Shown here: in pieces, positions 3,726 to 23,901 of the stretch | Layout of the letters: every line of letters begins with the position of its first letter | How positions within the stretch are numbered: position 1 is the first letter of the stretch | Virus record (IMG/VR): IMGVR_UViG_2698536335_000001 | Coordinates: 1 to 26,512 of that record | Strand: one strand, 5' to 3' | Source: a virus | Taxonomy: Duplodnaviria > Heunggongvirae > Uroviricota > Caudoviricetes | Length of the DNA stretch: 26,512 bases | The notes under the pieces: model-generated | Told to the model about the DNA's origin: nothing | What the model saw: only the letters and a program-made list of their open reading frames with translations | The model's database searches: none | Translations under genes and position numbers: made by a program

Positions 3726-3778
3726 GTTAAATCTCCAGATAGTCGCAGCACCCGTTGCGCCGCATATCCGATTATTCT

Positions 3779-3845
3779 ATTACCTGAAAAACCATATATG
3801 GATAGGTAGACCATGAATACAAACAGATATTACCTTTCAGGTAAT
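3779..3845. promoter_or_regulatory. pair of inverted 11-mers ATTACCTGAAA (3779-3789) and TTTCAGGTAAT (3835-3845); the second is part of the 17-bp palindrome ATTACCTTTCAGGTAAT (3829-3845)
   Basis: Read directly in the intergenic region upstream of the tailspike gene; the same 17-mer recurs at 20444-20460. Confidence 0.35.
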
Positions 3846-3881
3846 TTGCAAAACGTGCTGGATAGCAAACAAATTATTTGA

Positions 3882-3901
3882 TACTGTATAAATATACAGT
3901 T
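3882..3901 (+). promoter_or_regulatory. LexA (SOS) box TACTGTATAAATATACAGTT
   Basis: CTGT (3884-3887), 8-nt AT-rich spacer, ACAG (3896-3899); 18 of 20 positions match the E. coli consensus TACTGTATATATATACAGTA; 20 bp upstream of the ATG at 3921. Confidence 0.7.
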
Positions 3902-3920
3902 ATTGCATGGAGAAGATAAG

Positions 3921-4178
3921 ATGCAGCAGTATCACTATCCACTGGAAGACGGATTTACCGAAAGGATTCACACGCCGGGAGGCGTCAGGTCACTGGTGGA
4001 GGGATCGCACTTGATGAAATTACTCCGGGATCTCGATAAGGATGGATTTAATGTCGATGGCCCACTTGCCGAACTGACTGCACTGATTAACTACGTCACC
4101 AGCTCACAGATGTCTATGCAGGATCTGCAAACACATCTCGACTATTGTGCCAAACAATTACGAAAACAAATCACATAA
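3921..4178 (+). CDS. SOS-regulated hypothetical protein, 85 aa, acidic (MQQYHYPLEDGFTERIHTPGG...)
   Basis: ATG at 3921 with GGAGA RBS (3909-3913); the track start at 3903 is a TTG extension; LexA box immediately upstream; convergent with the virion operon. Confidence 0.6.
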   Translation: MQQYHYPLEDGFTERIHTPGGVRSLVEGSHLMKLLRDLDKDGFNVDGPLAELTALINYVTSSQMSMQDLQTHLDYCAKQLRKQIT

Positions 4179-4200
4179 AGAAAAGGCCGCGAAAGCGGCC
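4171..4200 (-). terminator. rho-independent terminator ending the minus-strand ejection-protein transcript
   Basis: ggccgc-gaaa-gcggcc hairpin (4185-4200) followed on the minus strand by TTTTCTTTAT (4171-4184). Confidence 0.55.
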
Positions 4201-4220
4201 TGTGACATGTCACGCTCACG

Positions 4221-4361
4221 TTATGACAAGCCTATGTACCCTGCTACACCAGATAATATCAAAATAACTGCAACAGCAAATTCGCCATCGTCAATGATAC
4301 ATTTACGGTTCATAACGCCAAGTGCAACAAGCGCAAACACAACAAGAATAAAAGCAATCAT
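4221..4361 (-). CDS. small hydrophobic protein, 46 aa (MIAFILVVFALVALGVMNRKCIIDDGEFAVAVILILSGVAGYIGLS); absent from the ORF track
   Basis: ATG at 4361 preceded by AAGGA, directly after the TAA of the upstream gene; two hydrophobic segments; followed 20 nt later by the terminator at 4171-4200. Confidence 0.35.
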   Translation of the reverse strand: MIAFILVVFALVALGVMNRKCIIDDGEFAVAVILILSGVAGYIGLS

Positions 4362-4370
4362 TTCTCATCC

Positions 4371-18161: not shown

Positions 18162-18458
18162 TCACTCCTGTTCACTGGCCTCTTTGGCCATCTTCAAATA
18201 CTGTTCAGGGCAATGCGCCATAACGCGCTGAAACAGTTCCAGCGCCAGATTGCGTTGCCCCTCATTAAATGCCATTGCCATAGCGTCCATCGGTGAGATA
18301 GCGGAAAACACACGGCCTTTCTCCAGCACCGACCAGACAACGCGACGCCCCTGTTCACTGCTCATGACAAAGCGAATGTCATCAATTTCACGCTGTGCCA
18401 TGTCACGTTGCTTACGGGCGTTTTCTTCTTTCAGTTGATCGTCTTCGTAATCTGTCAT
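18162..18458 (-). CDS. hypothetical head-morphogenesis protein, 98 aa
   Basis: Start overlaps the portal stop by 4 nt; charged helical protein. Confidence 0.55.
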   Translation of the reverse strand: MTDYEDDQLKEENARKQRDMAQREIDDIRFVMSSEQGRRVVWSVLEKGRVFSAISPMDAMAMAFNEGQRNLALELFQRVMAHCPEQYLKMAKEASEQE

Positions 18459-20134
18459 TGTGATTGCCCACCCTGACCACTAACTGCATTCGCCATAGCT
18501 GACAACACACTCGGATCCGAAGTTTTAGCTTCGCTTAGCGTCTTGGCCCCCTGTGCCGCCGCCATCCCCATCGCCATCATTTGTTGCTGCTGTTGTTGCT
18601 GTGCCCGTTGCTGGCGAGCCTGCTCAACCTGTTCCTGCGGAACAATGACGGTTGGAGACACTCCGGACATATCAGCGAATGCATCGATCGCCTGATCAAC
18701 GTTGAGTTTGTCGAGAGCTTCTGGTTTCGCTTGCGCAAGTTGACCAATGAAGTTAACCGTGGACGCCAGACTGGACAGGCCGATAGACTTCTGCGCCTGA
18801 GCCATGACGGAAATGTATTCGACCTTCAGGGGCATGCCTTCCATCGCGTCAGGCGGTGGCGGCAGCATGTTTTTACGCACCATCATCGAGAAAGCGCGGT
18901 CAATGAGAGGATTAAGACATTCGTCGTTCAGACGCTCCAGAACCGGCCCCAACATCAGAAGTTTTTCTTCTTTCATTTCGATCACCGCTTCAACAGGCAT
19001 CGAGCGGGTATTGATGTTCTGCAACATCATGAACAGATCGACAAAGTAGGCGCTGTTAATGATTTGACGAGTGTCCTGAATGTCTGCCACCAAATCTGCT
19101 GTACTGGGGTTAACCAGATAAGCAGGCCTGAAGCCATCCTGACCAGTAATCTGATCGATATACGTGATGTCGCCAGGAAGAAGGGAGGCGCGCTGATTCT
19201 TGAGGGAAGTCGGAGCAACCATCGGCGGATTGGTGGCTTTATCAATCAACTGCGACTTGCGCTTCTGGAGAAGCTGCAATGCCTTAACAGGTCCAAGCGC
19301 CAGCATACCCGGGCATGATGATCCATAAACATCTTCGCCGTTAACTTCCCAGCGCGGAGCCATAATTGGAAACTCATCGAATCCGGACTCACGCAACAAC
19401 TTGTCGTTATCGCCACCAACCTCGTAATAAACCGATTTGAATGGCTTGTTCTTGCTATCCAGCTTCGATGTGTCGCGGTCAATATTCGGGTAAACCGAAT
19501 GCATCACTTCAATCCACTTCTCGTAGGTGCCGCTTTCCCACATGCTTTTTACGGATTCGCTGACGTTATTTAGCCCGAACTCCTGAACAAGCTGACGAAC
19601 AGTCATAGAGAACTTGCGAAAACAGGTGTCCACACTGCCACGAGGTGAGTTAGCCAGGTAGTAACTACCAATCGGGAATGGCATTGTGCGAATGATGTCC
19701 TCGTCATCCTCCAGTACCGCCATTGCACCGGTGCTGTATGTGCCGAGGCTTCCGTATAACTGCGGAAGAGACTGGTAGAGATTCGACTTATTGAACATAT
19801 CGTTCATGCGGTTCTGCACCGCCTCAAGCCACAACTTAACAGGGCCATAATCCATCATTTCAGGATCTGGCGTAGCCAGGCGAAACCACGGACGGGCGGG
19901 GCTTGTGATGCCTGACATCATGCCGCTGGCGAGAGTGCGCGCCGCCATAGTCCCGGTCGAATCAATAATGCGTGTATTGCGTCGATCGTTACGGTTGACC
20001 TCAGAAGTCAGAAAGCGGGAACCACGCGGGTTGATGTAATCACTCAACTCGCGCCAGTGCGGCTCGAACGACTGACGCTCGCTTTCAAGTTGTGCGAACT
20101 GTTTGTTCAATCGCTCTTTAGTTGTTTCCGCCAT
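18455..20134 (-). CDS. portal (head-to-tail connector) protein, 559 aa
   Basis: Size and position between terminase and scaffold; GGAG RBS. Confidence 0.8.
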   Translation of the reverse strand: MAETTKERLNKQFAQLESERQSFEPHWRELSDYINPRGSRFLTSEVNRNDRRNTRIIDSTGTMAARTLASGMMSGITSPARPWFRLATPDPEMMDYGPVKLWLEAVQNRMNDMFNKSNLYQSLPQLYGSLGTYSTGAMAVLEDDEDIIRTMPFPIGSYYLANSPRGSVDTCFRKFSMTVRQLVQEFGLNNVSESVKSMWESGTYEKWIEVMHSVYPNIDRDTSKLDSKNKPFKSVYYEVGGDNDKLLRESGFDEFPIMAPRWEVNGEDVYGSSCPGMLALGPVKALQLLQKRKSQLIDKATNPPMVAPTSLKNQRASLLPGDITYIDQITGQDGFRPAYLVNPSTADLVADIQDTRQIINSAYFVDLFMMLQNINTRSMPVEAVIEMKEEKLLMLGPVLERLNDECLNPLIDRAFSMMVRKNMLPPPPDAMEGMPLKVEYISVMAQAQKSIGLSSLASTVNFIGQLAQAKPEALDKLNVDQAIDAFADMSGVSPTVIVPQEQVEQARQQRAQQQQQQQMMAMGMAAAQGAKTLSEAKTSDPSVLSAMANAVSGQGGQSQ

Positions 20135-20148
20135 TTCAATGACTCCGG

Positions 20149-20355
20149 TTACTGACCAAGCAGCGTTTTACCGCTGGTATTAGCGGTTGATGTGTCGCCC
20201 TGAGAACCGGTAAGCAGCGTAGAACTACGACCAGCAGCAGCGCGACGGCGACGTGTTTCTTCGTCGCGGGCATCAACAACGGCGGCATCCTGCTCCTGTG
20301 GTGCTGCCTGAACTTCTGGTGTTGCAGGCACTGATGGTGAGCTACCCATGCACAT
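20149..20355 (-). CDS. small Ser/Thr/Ala-rich hypothetical protein, 68 aa
   Basis: Shares an almost identical 16-nt translation-initiation sequence with the portal gene; chosen over the overlapping alternative frame 20136-20375. Confidence 0.4.
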   Translation of the reverse strand: MCMGSSPSVPATPEVQAAPQEQDAAVVDARDEETRRRRAAAGRSSTLLTGSQGDTSTANTSGKTLLGQ

Positions 20356-20423
20356 ATCAATGACTCCGTACGCAATTAAATTATTACCAATTTAACCACA
20401 TATGATTTATTTATCGTAGATAG

Positions 20424-20461
20424 TTGACATTTAACGCACAAATTATTACCTTTCAGGTAAC
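20424..20461 (+). promoter_or_regulatory. candidate promoter (TTGACA at 20424-20429, 17-bp spacer, TACCTT) overlapped by the 17-bp motif at 20444-20460
   Basis: Perfect -35 hexamer read directly; the -10 is weak; the 17-mer TATTACCTTTCAGGTAA is identical to the copy at 3828-3844. Confidence 0.3.
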
Positions 20462-20782
20462 CAAAGAGTTCATTCCGGTTACTAACCTGACTGGCTTGTC
20501 GTTAAATTGAACAGGTGGAGTGAGCTTTTATTTTGAGCAGTACGGCGTATGGCACATGCGCCGATAGCGGTCTGGATACGTTTAAGGGGCACCCTCCCTT
20601 GCTCGGGCAAACGAACCAGGTAGCCGGAATGTGCAAGTCGAGCGGTTTTATTCCGCGCACGGGGATTCACCATCCCGGCGATTCGGTGTGACGCCTCGGA
20701 AGAGACGAGGGTACAACGATGAGAGCATTTATGGAGCCGCGACAAAGTGTGGCGCCTTAACAGGCTAAGTGCTCTCAGCGTT

Positions 20783-20859
20783 GTGGCATTAGCTCAGTTG
20801 GACAGAGCAACCGCCTTCTAAGCGGTTGGTCGCAGGTTCGAATCCTGCATGCCACGCCA
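20783..20859 (+). tRNA. tRNA-Arg, anticodon TCT (reads AGA), 77 nt with encoded CCA
   Basis: Hand-folded cloverleaf: acceptor GTGGCAT/ATGCCAC, D arm GCTC/GAGC, anticodon stem ACCGC/GCGGT with loop CTTCTAA, T arm GCAGG-TTCGAAT-CCTGC; similar to but distinct from E. coli argU as I recall it. Confidence 0.9.
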
Positions 20860-20902
20860 GAATCACGCCTAAGGACCGTGATGCCAGAAGTTCCAGGGGC
20901 TT

Positions 20903-20945
20903 GGCGGTGATGGTTTCCCTTGAAGGACTATCACCGCCCTTTTTA
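20903..20945 (+). terminator. hairpin plus T-run downstream of the tRNA
   Basis: 9-bp stem ggcggtgat (20903-20911) / atcaccgcc (20930-20938) followed by CTTTTT. Confidence 0.5.
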
Positions 20946-21022
20946 CAGCAGGACGCCATTGCGATGACTTCATGCTGTAAACCAGTACAGCCACGGAAGG
21001 CATAACTCATTGCTTCCAGTTC

Positions 21023-21046
21023 GCCCGGTTCGCCGGGCATTTTTTT
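21023..21046 (+). terminator. GC-rich hairpin with seven T residues, abutting the RBS of the gene at 21063
   Basis: gcccgg-ttcg-ccgggc (21023-21038), A, then TTTTTTT (21040-21046); AAGGTGA RBS follows at 21047-21053. Confidence 0.6.
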
Positions 21047-21062
21047 AAGGTGAGATTAGACT

Positions 21063-21434
21063 ATGAGTGACAAAGACATTGAATCTGAAATTCAGGCTAA
21101 AGGTTTAGCCGCGCCGCGCGTTACGCCAGACCATATCGAGAGCATTATTGCTCAGGAGGCATATTTCACAGCAGAAGATGGTTCCTTTGGCGTAGCCATA
21201 AAAGCGAAACATACTGGCGGAGAGGTAAACTACCAGCCGCACGAATCACTTTCTCTGCTGACGTTCTGCGTCCTGGTGCTGCGCAACGGCTTCACCGTCA
21301 CCGGAGAGAGCGCCTGTGCAAGCCCGGAAAACTTTGATGCAGAAATTGGTCGGAAGATTGCCCGACAGAATGCTGTAAACAAAATCTGGATGCTTGAAGG
21401 TTACTTGCTGAAGCAGAAGTTAAGCGAGCAATAA
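21063..21434 (+). CDS. moron-encoded hypothetical protein, 123 aa; possibly N4 gp49 / Sf6 gene 66 family
   Basis: Strong RBS; segment LRNGFTVTGESACASPENFDAEIGRKIARQNA resembles the conserved core of that family as I recall it; opposite strand to the virion operon. Confidence 0.6.
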   Translation: MSDKDIESEIQAKGLAAPRVTPDHIESIIAQEAYFTAEDGSFGVAIKAKHTGGEVNYQPHESLSLLTFCVLVLRNGFTVTGESACASPENFDAEIGRKIARQNAVNKIWMLEGYLLKQKLSEQ

Positions 21435-21454
21435 CACCGTGACATATCACAAAC

Positions 21455-21481
21455 AGCCAGCCTATGAGCTGGCTTTGTTTT
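21455..21481 (+). terminator. hairpin plus T-rich tail after the moron gene
   Basis: agccagc-ctatga-gctggct (21455-21474) followed by TTGTTTT. Confidence 0.5.
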
Positions 21482-21524
21482 ATCCTCATCAGAGGATATC
21501 AACAACATTATCCCCTCAAGCGGA

Positions 21525-23000
21525 TTAAGCATAGGGATCGTAATCTGTGATGGCCTTGCCTTGCTGGTTCTGCTGCCCGGGAATTCGCAGACGCTTAGAC
21601 ACAGGGAACGCAAACGTCAGCAGTAGCGCATCGCCTTTACCCGGAGAACGCCCAAGCCGCTCTTTGATATCTTCCTTCGGTTCGATAACGATTTTACCGT
21701 CCACTCGAACTTTGTACTCTGCCGCCGACAGGTCGTCCGCTGTTTCCTGGTCATCCAGCATGCCGCCCAGCCTCAGCCATGTCTTACATGAGTTGAACAT
21801 CTCCCCACGCTTGTTAAGCATCTGCGGGTCAGTGGACGCACCGCCGAACGGAACAAGTTGCCATGTACGTCCCCAGCCATCACCGATTGACTTCAAACCG
21901 GTTCCGTAACCGAAGTCGATGAACACCGCGTCAGCCTGGTACTGGTCTTCAAAGTCAGCGATACGCTTCGCCATAATCAGATCGTCGGTGGTCTTGTTGC
22001 CGGTCCACAGCACCTTACTGTGCAGCCCCTGCCGCAGGTATATCACCGCGTCATCAACACCGGAGTATGCAGGGTCAACGCCGATTATCACCGGAGCATG
22101 TGCCACCTGCGCAGCAGTTACCACCCGTTTCATTGCCTCGTCAGTAAGACCGGTAGGGATAAACTGCAATTCAGATGCATCAGGGAATATGCCGCGCACA
22201 CGGATTTTAACGAAGTCGCTGTCTTCCCCGTAGTCATCAACCCATTTCTGCAACTGCTGTTTGTTAGTGCCTTCCACCGTCCGGCTGTCAATCTGCGCAG
22301 TTTTCCAGCGGTGTTTATACTTGCGGAAACATTCACGGAATCGCCCGGTATTACGCGTAGGGTTTCCGAACGCCACCCAAATAATCTCAGTGTCTTCGTC
22401 CGTAAGCGCACCCTCGGCAACTTCCCACACCAGATCCGCAATGTTCGACGCTTCATCAAACACCACGATGATGCGTTTGCGCTCGTTGTGTAGTCCGGCG
22501 AATGCCTCAGTGTTGTGCTCAGACCAGGGGATTGCGTCAGCCCGCCACCGCTTGTCGTGCCCAGGATCATTGCTGTACATCGCGGTAGCGGTACAGGTAA
22601 ACCAGTCTTTCGTGATAGCAAGGTTCGACCACTTGATAATTTCCGGCCAAGTCTTCGTTCGTAGCTGGTTGTCGGTGTTGGCGGTCACCACGACCTTACA
22701 ATCCTCGCAAGTGGACATGCCCCAGTTGATCAGCATTGAGATGAATGCGGATTTACCAATACCGTGACCAGAAGCACGTGCCAGCATAAGCGGCTGATAT
22801 CGCGTCTCTGGATTCTGCAGGTGATCACGTATCTCTCGGAACGCATCGGCCTGCCACTGACGTGGACCGGTGGCATGTGCCAGTTCAGTACCCTCTTCCC
22901 CCCACGGGAACGCATAGAGGGCATAGCCAAGCGGATCGTGAGTGAACCCTGCAATATCCTCGATTAACTGCTCTTCAGGAGATAACACTGTATCTGTCAC
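21525..23000 (-). CDS. terminase large subunit, 491 aa
   Basis: Walker A-like ASGHGIGKS and Walker B-like IIVVFDEAS in the N-terminal ATPase region, acidic nuclease-like C-terminal half; start overlaps the small-subunit stop. Confidence 0.85.
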   Translation of the reverse strand: MTDTVLSPEEQLIEDIAGFTHDPLGYALYAFPWGEEGTELAHATGPRQWQADAFREIRDHLQNPETRYQPLMLARASGHGIGKSAFISMLINWGMSTCEDCKVVVTANTDNQLRTKTWPEIIKWSNLAITKDWFTCTATAMYSNDPGHDKRWRADAIPWSEHNTEAFAGLHNERKRIIVVFDEASNIADLVWEVAEGALTDEDTEIIWVAFGNPTRNTGRFRECFRKYKHRWKTAQIDSRTVEGTNKQQLQKWVDDYGEDSDFVKIRVRGIFPDASELQFIPTGLTDEAMKRVVTAAQVAHAPVIIGVDPAYSGVDDAVIYLRQGLHSKVLWTGNKTTDDLIMAKRIADFEDQYQADAVFIDFGYGTGLKSIGDGWGRTWQLVPFGGASTDPQMLNKRGEMFNSCKTWLRLGGMLDDQETADDLSAAEYKVRVDGKIVIEPKEDIKERLGRSPGKGDALLLTFAFPVSKRLRIPGQQNQQGKAITDYDPYA

Positions 23001-23593
23001 TGATTACCATCCTGACGTTCTTTGAGTCGCTTCCTGGCTGCTGCTATGCGATCAGCAATTGTCACATTCACATTAACATCCAGGCGTTCTTTGAATGCGT
23101 TGACGTCGACGTGCTTACCAATCAGTTCGAGGTTCTTCACCTTGTCAGGCCATTTAATTTTTTTGAGGATTGTCTCTATCGAATCCTCGTTCATGTTCAT
23201 GATGGTCGATGACAGATCAAAGCCGCTAAGCGTAGTGCGCCAGATTTTCGGCCACTCGCGGATTGGCTTAAGGCTCCCATCGTCGTTGAGGATGTCGATC
23301 ACGTCCATCTGGTCGATCTCCACCAGGCGCATGAGAACGTAATCAGCACTGACGCGCATTCGTTTGTTGCGCTCCTCCATCAACTCGGCAATCCGTTTTT
23401 GAATGCGTTCATCGCGCATCATGACACTGGCTTTAACTGCCGCTGTATTTGGGGAGAATCCTGCATTAATCGCTGCCTGAGTCTGGTTTTCAGGCGTTTT
23501 GATGTATGACTGGCAATAAGCCTCCTGCATTGCTGTTAGTGGCTTAAATTGCGTTGATTTGCGTTTATAGGTTTTAGGTTCAGCAGGCATCAT
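22997..23593 (-). CDS. terminase small subunit, ~198 aa
   Basis: Immediately upstream of and overlapping the large subunit; helix-rich basic protein; ATG at 23593 (track start 23671 is a TTG extension running through a terminator and tandem repeat). Confidence 0.65.
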   Translation of the reverse strand: MMPAEPKTYKRKSTQFKPLTAMQEAYCQSYIKTPENQTQAAINAGFSPNTAAVKASVMMRDERIQKRIAELMEERNKRMRVSADYVLMRLVEIDQMDVIDILNDDGSLKPIREWPKIWRTTLSGFDLSSTIMNMNEDSIETILKKIKWPDKVKNLELIGKHVDVNAFKERLDVNVNVTIADRIAAARKRLKERQDGNQ

Positions 23594-23596
23594 AAC

Positions 23597-23632
23597 CACC
23601 GTGGTAATAGTTACCGTTGTGGTAATAGTACC
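23597..23632. repeat. tandem direct repeat, two copies of ~18 bp, core GTGGTAATAGT at 23601-23611 and 23619-23629
   Basis: Read directly: accgtggtaatagttaccgttgtggtaatagtacc, between the terminator and the terminase small-subunit start. Confidence 0.5.
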
Positions 23633-23667: not shown

Positions 23668-23901
23668 TCAAAGTCCATCAAATTCATCGTAAAAACTCTC
23701 GTCAAGATACCCTTCCCATTTACCGCGAATGAAAATTACATCCTCGCCGCAAGGGTGCTGACTGTCGATAACTATATCCCTCCTGGCGCAACCATACTTA
23801 TGCATGAGAAATTTAACCTCTTTCGGAAAATTTGCTGAATTATCTCTCATATCTTCAAGGTCGTAGCGTATTTTTGGCATAACACCTTCGTGACATGTCA
23901 C
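23668..23901 (-). CDS. hypothetical protein, 70-77 aa
   Basis: GTG at 23901 overlaps the upstream TGA (GTGA) or ATG at 23880; no recognisable motif. Confidence 0.5.
   Translation of the reverse strand: MTCHEGVMPKIRYDLEDMRDNSANFPKEVKFLMHKYGCARRDIVIDSQHPCGEDVIFIRGKWEGYLDESFYDEFDGL

Follow-up and report, generated by a model that had tools for sequence, protein, structure and literature searches.

Morons were reportedly described in the lambdoid phages HK97 and HK022 by Juhala, Hendrix, and colleagues. The classic moron comes with a promoter of its own, is in many cases active in the prophage, and has a differing base composition. Terminators can also lie within operons: the T1 terminator of rpsU-dnaG-rpoD and the terminator of rplL-rpoB are internal and attenuating, and the PR'-6S RNA-tR' segment of lambda works with Q. 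For antitermination, precedents are the put RNAs of HK022 and N/nut and Q of lambda. The Rep-Ant-LexA switch of Salmonella phage SPC32H (PDB 5D50) is said to have been described by Kim and Ryu in 2013 and 2016.

Acb4 is a small, tetrameric sponge whose four pockets, located at interfaces, hold 3'3'-cGAMP and, for members from Gram-negative phages, c-di-AMP. The protein resembles double-stranded-RNA-binding domains, and Acb4 anti-CBASS sponges serve the phage during lytic growth (PMC11722364). All eight Acb4 homologues that were assayed bound 3'3'-cGAMP, and Table S3 of the same work lists phiV10 Q287B5, along with epsilon15, Sf6, and N4 proteins, as Acb4 homologues (PMC11722364). For the Acb4 of N4, c-di-AMP binding was measured at 111 nM, and the protein sets off the PanDA guard system. 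An anti-signaling (anti-defense) hotspot is known as well, in N4-like phages (bioRxiv 10.64898/2026.06.04.730250).

The stretch of DNA analyzed here (the window; 26,512 nucleotides) is that of a phiV10/epsilon15-like temperate podophage, a Uetakevirus, with its late genes on the minus strand. Between the large terminase gene and gp3/portal, as these are arranged in phiV10/epsilon15-like phages, lies a plus-strand island that is antisense to the late operon. The reading we favor, and hold to be reasonably probable, is that the island carries an Acb4 sponge in a single-gene slot, promoterless, expressed by read-through of two terminators (T1 and T2), and repressed by Rep in the lysogen.

A 123-Residue Member of the Acb4 Family

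The gene in the slot (21063-21434, plus strand) encodes a 123-residue homologue of PhiV10p03. A profile search of this protein, proposed in a sequence-only reading of the same DNA, gives a full-length match to Pfam PF13876, the Acb4 family (E 2.4e-35; 121.3 bits, where the cut-off is 27; the alignment spans positions 1 to 82 of the 82 in the model), while the profile run against PDB sequences finds Acb4 itself, 9E4W (E 3.4e-6). The AF2 monomer model (pLDDT 83.7) has the Acb4 fold, in which helices flank a sheet of three strands and the C terminus forms a long helix. In a Foldseek search of the PDB with this model, only thirteen chains fall below E 0.2, all from 9E4W (E 7e-4 to 3e-3, probability 1.0, target TM 0.61-0.71), and the next match has an E of 0.2. 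By sequence, profile, and fold, the protein is thus a member of the Acb4 family. It is 45% identical to the Acb4 of N4, about 22 to 24% identical to that of SPO1, and differs from phiV10 Q287B5 at two positions (121 of 123 residues identical). An insert at residues 38-61 is hypervariable. The ratio dN/dS is 0.05 to 0.21 for the gene and 0.02 to 0.10 for the C-terminal domain; the gene is under purifying selection and in use.

What would such a protein do? By analogy with its assayed relatives, it is predicted to bind cyclic dinucleotides and to be an anti-CBASS sponge, one that would sequester the alarm signals so that the CBASS effector is never switched on. Residues of the SPO1 pocket were mapped in the phmmer register shifted by one to the numbering of the SPO1 paper (residue + 29), the shift being our own deduction. 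In that register, F48, F62, and I66 of SPO1 Acb4 correspond to F77, F91, and I95 and are conserved, N63, a backbone contact, becomes D92, and K36, E49, Y57, and T70 become L65, T78, A86, and I99. Since these last four are replaced, the ligand specificity may differ from that of SPO1 Acb4.

The Cargo Slot and Its Borders

As reconstructed from the sequence, the unit would run in the order TTGACA-N17-TACCTT with a Rep operator, a leader in which tRNA-Arg may be present or absent, T1, a conserved spacer about 80 nt long, T2, AAGGTGA and ATG, the cargo, a palindrome, and a last terminator, T3. The tRNA-Arg (anticodon TCT; 20783-20859, plus strand), found by ARAGORN and scoring 73.3 bits with the Rfam tRNA model, is an optional leader insert, absent from epsilon15 and E15, which retain the rest of the unit. 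Directly after it comes T1 (20903-20944, plus strand), a 14-bp hairpin at 20903-20938 followed by CTTTTT. At -22.8 kcal/mol (z = -3.6 versus shuffles), it is stronger than the T2 and T3 hairpins. Across relatives, 6 of its 14 pairs have changed on both sides, and two relatives carry an unrelated terminator at the same place.

T2 (21023-21046, plus strand) has the features of an intrinsic (rho-independent) terminator: GCCCGG-TTCG-CCGGGC at 21023-21038, giving six G-C pairs and a UUCG loop, then an A and a run of seven T's (21040-21046). Its energy is -12.7 kcal/mol (z = -2.6 versus shuffles), and the epsilon15 record annotates it as a rho-independent terminator. Pairing is found in 98.1% of cells, and two of the six pairs have changed on both sides in 17 of 43 relatives, the change being GG/CC to AC/GU; there is also one U-G variant, and in one relative the loop is inverted. 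In these 43 relatives, then, the pairing of both upstream hairpins has been kept by compensatory changes. The Shine-Dalgarno sequence AAGGTGA (21047-21053, plus strand) abuts the T run with zero bases between, and the ATG stands 9 nt further on.

On the far side of the gene, a palindrome, GTGACATATCAC (21439-21450), forms the right border of the slot. It adjoins the last terminator and is kept in all relatives read. Two further copies of it occur in the window, at 4202 and 23890. T3 (21455-21481, plus strand) consists of a hairpin at 21455-21474 followed by TTTGTTTT (-13.5 kcal/mol; z = -4.0). T3 points at the end of the large terminase gene. Read on the minus strand, it has a weak U-tract, and its tail there, GTTTGTGA, also satisfies loose terminator criteria; the phiV10 record annotates this hairpin as a terminator after the large terminase gene. 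Altogether, 20100-21700 contains six terminator-like sites, compared with 1.4 +/- 1.2 in shuffles. The sequence-only reading had described the gene as boxed in by hairpins, and the hairpins, the seven T's, AAGGTGA, and the ATG at 21063 all lie exactly where it placed them; T1 adds a third hairpin within the range it covered. Its statement that the hairpins have U-tracts only on the plus strand is correct for T1 and T2 but only mostly so for T3, given the minus-strand tail GTTTGTGA.

How general is this arrangement? The slot was surveyed in 92 related viral contigs and elements. The search key was the 15-mer CGCCATTGCGATGAC, which makes this 15-mer invariant by design in loci L012-L131; the eight relatives that BLAST found all contain it too. 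The T run after the T2 hairpin is exactly seven long in 81 of the 92, and in 64 AAGGTGA follows right behind it, upstream of unrelated genes. A Shine-Dalgarno sequence and ATG stand directly behind the T run in 72 elements, and the reading frames they open fall into nine clusters. At this same ATG position are found Acb4 (38 contigs), a Tad2-like protein (PF11195, E 3e-24), and a protein with the Acb2/Tad1 hairpin domain (PF24729, E 4e-17), as well as several unknown families (phrog_4846, phrog_18493, and singletons). In phiv142-3 and three other contigs, only a deletion remnant of eight codons is left. The insertion thus lies between genes that are adjacent in relatives, and parts of the slot match 787 of 5,426 complete E. 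coli genomes. With TL-2011b and many E. coli prophages, homology ends at the last T of T2. In 20 relatives, what begins directly behind the T run is either a new promoter-like sequence or another module.

Because the hairpin, T run, and AAGGTGA are conserved while the gene behind them varies, the hairpin at 21023-21038 is part of a conserved, noncoding upstream element common to all cargo variants and not private to the acb4 gene. T2 closes this unit and bounds the cargo slot on the left, as seen from the deletion remnants and from cargo that brings an operator-bearing promoter of its own immediately behind the T run. And because what follows the conserved junction varies among sponge families, unknowns, and a remnant, the slot is, judged by these sequence comparisons, an anti-signaling hotspot with a docking site conserved across the phage genus. 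The earlier view of an accessory gene was sound, in that the gene is swappable cargo whose exact place is taken in relatives by other genes or by none. No compositional oddity marks it, its GC of 0.49 being similar to that of the flanking genes (0.52 to 0.57) and of the window (0.48). The spacer and the minus-strand reading frame PhiV10p04 of the phiV10 annotation (21040-20789) were considered as coding and set aside, in view of loop lengths that differ by numbers not divisible by three and of the overlap with the tRNA.

Expression of the Cargo

As mentioned, the ribosome-binding site begins where the T run of T2 ends, which bears out the earlier remark that there is no room for a promoter between hairpin and ribosome-binding site. 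A promoter scan (rule, 4 of 6 matches per hexamer) found no sigma-70 match in 20100-21700. Of the candidates read by eye between T1 and the ATG (TTTACA-N17-TGACTT, TTGCGA-N17-CCAGTA, and CATAAC), each either misses bases that a -10 element needs or is not conserved. Without a promoter there, transcripts must arrive from upstream through the terminators. The sequence-only reading said as much and named a tRNA promoter as the source; the passage through terminators stands, but a tRNA promoter is not obvious, the best candidate lying 330 nt upstream of the tRNA. This candidate sigma-70 promoter (20424-20452, plus strand), read from the sequence, consists of TTGACA (20424-20429), a 17-bp spacer, and TACCTT (20447-20452). 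It is the only conserved upstream promoter-like site of the island: both hexamers and the distance between them persist in 52 of 74 relatives, and the spacer sequence varies. Its -10 hexamer is weak and puts it below the threshold of the scan, a point against the favored reading.

Overlapping the -10 region and start site is an inverted repeat, ATTACC-N5-GGTAAC (20445-20461), a putative Rep operator. The epsilon15 annotation at this site reads "repressor, lysogeny." The motif [AT]TACC-N5-GGTA[AT] occurs 12 times in epsilon15, compared with about 0.6 occurrences of the core TACC-N5-GGTA in shuffles, and the copies cluster on both sides of the repressor gene. Since the operator is a palindrome, it could equally serve the minus-strand gp3/portal promoter, as the epsilon15 annotators seemingly read it, and this too counts against the favored reading.

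Taken together, the favored reading would work as follows. Rep would hold the unit off in the lysogen. After infection, or after SOS induction acting from LexA through the antirepressor on Rep, the unit would be switched on early and later damped, probably by convergent late transcription. The cargo would be translated from the fraction of transcripts that pass T1 and T2, helped by the strong ribosome-binding site right behind the U run. Read-through as the route of expression, with the unit off in the lysogen, is the likely mechanism; like control by Rep, the timing, and nucleotide binding by the protein, it is inferred.

Where does this leave LexA? The sequence-only reading saw a lysogenic-conversion moron, low in the prophage and induced via a weak LexA site at 20975-20990, which we now regard as highly improbable. 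A CTGT-N8-ACAG core is indeed present there, and, as is usual for morons, the gene sits between terminators and varies from one relative to the next. Scored with a matrix built from 21 SOS boxes, however, the site (20973-20992) reaches 9.5 bits, below every real box in that matrix (the lowest is 14.9 bits) and fourth in the window, level with a noise tail of 10.2, 9.3, and 9.2 bits. Its ACAG is absent from epsilon15, E15, SPN1S, PAT1, Tyrion, and Kp4865-1, and the site is lost in the Salmonella, Klebsiella, and Enterobacter relatives. Its supposed half-site CTGTAAA forms the 3' arm of P1, the conserved RNA helix described below. On the noise-level score and the lack of conservation, LexA control of the island via 20973-20992 was set aside. 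Nor does the gene appear to serve the lysogen, as had been suggested, since its family is one of phage counter-defense that acts in lytic growth (PMC11722364) and the only conserved promoter is overlapped by the repressor operator motif. Conditional expression may still be linked to SOS, only indirectly: a canonical LexA box (3882-3901; 26.3 bits) lies upstream of the gene for an antirepressor, an Ant homologue matching PDB 5D50 chain E (E 2.6e-46), and this antirepressor would lift Rep repression of the island.

Between T1 and T2, the conserved spacer contains a helix, P1 (20942-20981, plus strand), formed by TTTACAGC...GCTGTAAA with an apical stem-loop and supported by RNAalifold and pair counts. 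Its cells are 99.5% paired, with two compensatory pairs (G-C to A-U in 19 sequences). The noncoding sequence between the tail of T1 and the ATG, which takes in the spacer, has a K of 0.19 versus epsilon15, and the flanking genes have a dS of 1.0 to 1.8. It has thus evolved 5 to 10 times more slowly than the synonymous sites of its neighbors, and the element is under purifying selection. In epsilon15, a compensatory change is also seen in a hairpin of the leader, at about 20543-20561. A second spacer helix, P2 (GGAAG..CUUCC), is not claimed, as only 84% of its cells are paired and some clades replace it. No Rfam family matched the spacer or leader RNA. A RyhB mimic (RF00057) was considered and dropped, the match reaching 18.1 bits against a gathering score of 55 (E = 2.3) and the 12-mer shared with RyhB lying in a variable arm and missing in Klebsiella-type elements. 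Riboswitch-like attenuation was likewise dropped, because neither forcing T2 open nor folding the nascent RNA revealed a shared antiterminator helix in four divergent variants.

These features bear on two other accounts of expression. Passive leakage has a difficulty of its own: T1 and T2 both look efficient, and what leaks past the two might be very little mRNA, an odd fit with a stoichiometric sponge. In the first of the other accounts, active antitermination, a phage factor or the leader/spacer RNA in cis would make polymerase resist T1 and T2, and the cargo would be fully expressed at a set time. This account draws on the slow evolution of the stretch behind T1, on the compensatory changes in the spacer helix and leader hairpin, and on the late operon of this phage group, whose start also lies immediately behind a terminator and which has further terminators inside it, so that some antitermination system probably exists. 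We nevertheless judge it unlikely, as neither an Rfam family, nor a pairing that competes with T2 in the four divergent variants, nor an antiterminator protein was found, and the 20 relatives with a promoter-like sequence of their own or another module after T2 look as if T2 were simply effective. The other account makes the spacer either the gene of a small RNA or a stable product cut from the 3' end of the transcript, with the 21023-21038 hairpin and U7 as its Hfq-type terminator and the cargo on its leaky end; it can coexist with the favored reading. The strong conservation, the structured P1, and the almost invariant run of seven U's suit it, as does the weak likeness to the RyhB core followed by a terminator. 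Hfq-binding small RNAs reportedly need their U run (Otaka et al., in 2011). We would still bet against it: no promoter lies between T1 and the spacer, where TTTACA-N17-TGACTT lacks the key -11 A, and the RyhB likeness is far below the gathering score, its shared 12-mer missing from Klebsiella-type elements.

An alternative to the protein's proposed role should be weighed as well, namely that its dsRBD-like fold is used otherwise, for example in RNA binding, and that no nucleotide sponge is encoded here. The likeness of Acb4 to double-stranded-RNA-binding domains and the replacement of several SPO1 ligand-contact residues lend it some color. It is nonetheless quite improbable, given that the eight assayed homologues and the N4 Acb4, 45% identical to our protein, all bind cyclic dinucleotides and that Tad2-like and Acb2/Tad1-like sponges occupy the same slot in relatives.

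What the Slot Offers and How It Compares

The gene itself is one more predicted Acb4 sponge, from a family whose published list already includes the phiV10 copy. The cargo slot, in turn, can be delimited to the exact base in temperate phages and prophages of enterobacteria that form a common group, and in it three known sponge families alternate with at least six uncharacterized small proteins, which become candidate inhibitors of CBASS, Thoeris, or related systems. Promoterless counter-defense genes behind two terminators raise the question of sponge dose and timing, which arises because the guard systems Panoptes and PanDA punish sponge expression. The analysis also exposes a strongly conserved, noncoding RNA element in the region between T1 and T2. 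A bolder and tentative proposal, on which we would not count, is that the spacer (20939-21022) is an undescribed regulatory RNA, either a cis antiterminator or an Hfq-type small RNA, that gates read-through into a genus-wide dock for genes against immune signaling. If so, the unknown families at the dock (phrog_4846, phrog_18493, and the singletons) would be new counter-defense proteins.

Compared with SPO1 Acb4 (9E4W; PF13876, "Phage_gp49_66") and N4 gp49, the protein is alike in its full-length match, predicted fold, small size, and phage origin; in the shifted register, the stacking and hydrophobic pocket residues F48, F62, and I66 also correspond. It differs from SPO1 Acb4 in that, in this register, the guanine-reading K36 and E49 are replaced, in its hypervariable insert, and in being carried by a temperate podophage. 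The window shares with the SPC32H Rep-Ant-LexA switch an Ant homologue behind a canonical LexA box and, at the island, the same operator motif, but here the island would be controlled only indirectly, and the switch lies outside 20903-21481.

Like the morons of lambdoid phages, the cargo is an extra gene, variable in content, that separates two genes which are neighbors in relatives and is followed by a terminator. Unlike them, it has no promoter of its own in the promoter scan, is probably repressed in the lysogen, and has a GC near that of its flanks, so that neither the own promoter nor the unlike base composition of a moron is found. The rpsU-dnaG-rpoD T1, rplL-rpoB, and lambda PR'-6S RNA-tR' arrangements likewise place a gene right behind an intrinsic terminator, with its dose set by read-through or antitermination; here, in contrast, the terminators are in tandem, the spacer is conserved and structured, and the downstream gene is exchangeable. 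The hotspot of N4-like phages, and anti-CRISPR and anti-defense islands generally, resemble the slot in having a fixed position at which close relatives carry different sponges (Acb4, Tad2, and others) along with unknowns. The slot differs from that hotspot in usually holding a single gene, in lying antisense to the late operon of temperate Uetakeviruses, in having mostly promoterless cargo, and in its base-exact borders, the T run on the left and the palindrome and terminator on the right. In sum, the gene family is known, and the slot adds one more case to a type of hotspot that is known as well.

An antisense island with a gene bounded by terminators

An island lies in the 1.17 kb that separate the large terminase gene (21525-23000) from gp3 (20149-20355). 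Its features are all plus-strand and run antisense to the late operon; both flanking genes, like those for the small terminase and the portal (18455-20134), lie on the minus strand. Over 20400-21600, the sequence shares 98% identity with those of Escherichia phage phiV10 and O157 typing phages 9 and 10, and Salmonella phage epsilon15 (genus Uetakevirus) is a relative; an E. coli chromosome carries a near-identical copy (99.8%). The gene for tRNA-Arg(TCT) (plus strand, 20783-20859) is directly followed by the hairpin of terminator T1 (20903-20938), which runs into CTTTTT and is stronger than that of terminator T2 (GCCCGG-TTCG-CCGGGC, 21023-21038). After an A and seven T residues (21040-21046), the ribosome-binding sequence AAGGTGA (21047-53) abuts the T run and precedes an open reading frame of 123 amino acids (aa) (21063-21434, ATG at 21063). 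The last terminator, T3, has its hairpin at 21455-21474 and the tail TTTGTTTT; the authors of the phiV10 record annotate this hairpin as a terminator after the large terminase gene. Folding energies of T1, T2, and T3 are -22.8, -12.7, and -13.5 kcal/mol (z = -3.6, -2.6, and -4.0), and 6 terminator-like sites occur within 1.6 kb versus 1.4 expected. Every feature that the sequence-only reading had placed is present at its stated position. Its claim that U-tracts occur only on the plus strand holds for the upstream hairpins but only mostly for the third, which passes loose terminator criteria on the minus strand as well.

Several other observations concern the surroundings. The tRNA segment (~20580-20915) is an insert of ~330 nt that is missing in epsilon15 and E15; it has a short direct repeat (TCCCTTG...) on its flanks and brings the left arm of T1 with it, and lambdoid phages (2H10, cdtI, mEp460) match its portion at 20542-20789 with 83% identity. 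PhiV10p04, a gene annotated in phiV10 (83 aa; phrog_4647), runs antisense over the tRNA, T1, and T2 (minus strand, 20789-21040) and is probably no gene, since indel lengths in relatives are not divisible by three. Just upstream of gp3, ~60 nt (20362-20420, CTCCGTACGCAATTAAATTATTACCAATTTAACCACATATGATTTATTTA) are near-invariant genus-wide while synonymous divergence of the genes is saturated; a late-strand control region or a 5' UTR is a possible explanation. Finally, a tandem pair of operator-like sites, ATAACCACCGTGGTAAT and GTTACCGTTGTGGTAAT (23592-23626, late strand), separates a terminator from the beginning of the small terminase gene. The late operon, too, is thus placed immediately after a terminator, a hint of an antitermination system.

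A predicted Acb4 sponge

What does the boxed-in gene encode? Its product matches the full Pfam model PF13876 (Phage_gp49_66; E 2.4e-35) and hits PDB 9E4W, "anti-CBASS 4 (Acb4)," at E 0.007 from the single sequence and 3.4e-6 from a profile of 58 homologues. When an AlphaFold2 model (pLDDT 83.7, pTM 0.73) was used for a structure search of the PDB, only 9E4W chains matched (E 7e-4, probability 1.0, target TM 0.61-0.71; next E 0.2). Acb4 of SPO1 is a tetrameric 3'3'-cGAMP sponge and its family is PF13876 (Chang et al., PMC11722364). In that study, 8 of 8 purified homologues bound 3'3'-cGAMP, those of phages with Gram-negative hosts bound 3'3'-c-di-AMP too, and none bound c-di-GMP; its Table S3 includes phiV10 Q287B5, from which the protein described here differs at 2 of 123 residues, and the epsilon15, Sf6, and N4 proteins. 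The PanDA guard system is triggered by N4 Acb4, a protein that is 45% identical across 108 residues to the one described here and that binds c-di-AMP at 111 nM. Judged from sequence, the gene is thus a member of a known family and a predicted Acb4 sponge, located in a newly seen hotspot of a known kind.

Residues were mapped to SPO1 Acb4 by moving the search-alignment register one residue to the paper's numbering, a shift that we infer. In this register, the stacking and hydrophobic contacts F48, F62, and I66 are retained as F77, F91, and I95, while the guanine-reading K36 and E49, plus Y57 and T70, are not, so base preference may differ from that of SPO1 Acb4. Purifying selection acts on the gene (dN/dS 0.05-0.21 overall, 0.02-0.10 over residues 62-123). 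Among relatives, both the sequence and the length of residues 38-61 (21174-21245) are hypervariable (dN ~0.4-1.0), with both ends of the protein nearly fixed; the variable stretch may be a surface loop that experiences diversifying pressure.

The upstream element and its probable control

The non-coding element ahead of the gene was aligned across 43 distinct elements. In T2, 98% of cells are paired and two pairs are altered on both sides (GG/CC to AC/GU, 17 sequences); in T1, six pairs are altered on both sides, and two contigs have an unrelated terminator instead. P1, a conserved helix in the spacer between T1 and T2 (20942-20981), has 99.5% of cells paired and two compensatory pairs. The covariation score is 0.192; shuffles give 0.120, with none of 500 attaining 0.192, and sliding the partners gives at most 0.089. 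Most changes divide two or three clades and hence reflect few independent events. Measured from the tail of T1 up to the ATG, spacer included, the non-coding divergence from epsilon15 is K = 0.19, set against dS of 1.0-1.8 for the genes of the large terminase, gp3, and the portal; by this comparison, the element is under selection well past what a hairpin alone needs. No conserved alternative pairing competing with T2 was found across four divergent variants. An Rfam search of the element returned no family at threshold, the best match being RyhB-like (RF00057; 20992-21046, 18.1 bits, E = 2.3). It rests on the RyhB-core 12-mer ATTGCTTCCAGT just 5' of the terminator and is probably due to chance, as the 12-mer is missing in Klebsiella-type elements. 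In single relatives, a hairpin loop is inverted with its stem retained (T1 in contig L100; T2 in L078, TTCG to CGAA), which looks like the footprint of template switching at palindromes.

How is the gene transcribed? A sigma-70 promoter scan of 20100-21700 gave no match, including between the hairpin and the ATG, in keeping with the proposal of a promoterless gene that depends on read-through or antitermination. The only conserved plus-strand promoter-like site is TTGACA (20424-29)-N17-TACCTT (20447-52), whose hexamers and spacing persist in 52 of 74 relatives despite a variable sequence between the hexamers. It is overlapped by ATTACC-N5-GGTAAC (20445-61), the counterpart of which is annotated as a repressor-binding site in the epsilon15 record; epsilon15 has 12 copies of [AT]TACC-N5-GGTA[AT] (core ~0.6 in shuffles), clustered on both sides of its repressor gene. 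In a second plus-strand island (3726-4370), flanked by the tailspike gene and the upstream late gene, a canonical LexA box (TACTGTATAAATATACAGTT, 3882-3901, 26.3 bits) neighbors a perfect operator copy (ATTACCTTTCAGGTAAT, 3829-3845). The box precedes an 85-aa gene (3921-4178) for an SPC32H-type antirepressor (PDB 5D50 chain E, E 2.6e-46), followed by a terminator and the palindrome GTGACATGTCAC (4202-4213).

The promoter-like site, the repressor motif, and the LexA box with its antirepressor point to a likely control logic of repressor (Rep) and antirepressor (Ant). Because the operator is palindromic, a minus-strand promoter for gp3 is a possible target too, and possibly the one controlled instead. 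Under Rep/Ant control of the island, Rep would silence it in the lysogen, and infection, or LexA cleavage followed by Ant, would release it. The tRNA would then be made early, as would the gene behind T2 via read-through, and convergent late transcription would probably damp the island later.

Conditional expression, as first proposed, was judged right, but the LexA route and the benefit to the lysogen were not. CTGT-N8-ACAG occurs three times in the window versus 0.4 expected, including the putative LexA site at 20975-20990, but the 20-mer around it (20973-20992) scores 9.5 bits, below every real box in a matrix of 21 SOS boxes and level with chance hits. Its ACAG is gone in Salmonella, Klebsiella, and Enterobacter relatives, and its CTGTAAA is the 3' arm of P1; the site was rejected. 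As for a lysogen benefit, the protein belongs to the Acb4 family and the island carries a repressor-operator motif and would be silenced by Rep in the lysogen.

An exchangeable slot across the genus

BLAST relatives, and then ~96 viral contigs collected via a 15-base key from the spacer, confirm the terminator-boxed arrangement and generalize it to a genus-wide slot. Exactly seven T residues make up the run in 81 of the 92 elements having one, AAGGTGA is the next seven bases in 64, and a ribosome-binding sequence and ATG directly follow in 72, the ATG lying 11-16 nt past the run. Homology to TL-2011b and many E. coli prophages ends at the last T of T2, and the right border is equally fixed, consisting of the palindrome GTGAC-NN-GTCAC and the last terminator. 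By these alignments, the T2 hairpin is a property of the slot, not of the gene. GTGAC-(AT|TA)-GTCAC itself stands at three module borders (4202-4213, 21439-21450, and 23890-23901), beside terminators or a start codon. If a single mismatch is tolerated, it has 8 matches versus 3.0 +/- 1.7 expected; its possible roles are marking a recombination boundary and binding a protein.

The 67 reading frames of at least 25 aa behind the ATG fall into nine clusters: Acb4 variants (38 contigs), a ~140-aa family (phrog_4846; 13), a ~143-aa family (phrog_18493; 6), Tad2-like proteins (PF11195, E 3e-24; 5), an Acb2/Tad1-hairpin protein (PF24729, E 4e-17; 1), and four singletons. Four contigs retain only an 8-codon remnant behind an intact hairpin and ribosome-binding sequence. 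In 20 others, different sequence follows the T run, in most cases with a new promoter-like site and its own operator, such as ATGACC-N17-TATAAT over TTACC-N5-GGTAT ahead of a gene for a 201-aa membrane protein. Uncharacterized small proteins encoded right behind the T run (contigs L022, L010, L076, L103, L095, L104, and L009) are candidate new counter-defense proteins. In phrog_9467, the N-terminal part is matched by the 88-aa L076 protein and the C-terminal part by Acb4, suggesting that fusions of the L076 domain to Acb4 exist.

With unrelated cargo (Acb4, Tad2-like, Acb2/Tad1-type, and others) at one site, the locus is an anti-signaling hotspot. It is the same kind of locus as the anti-signaling hotspot of N4-like phages (bioRxiv 10.64898/2026.06.04.730250), but here the slot is found in temperate podophages and usually holds a single gene.
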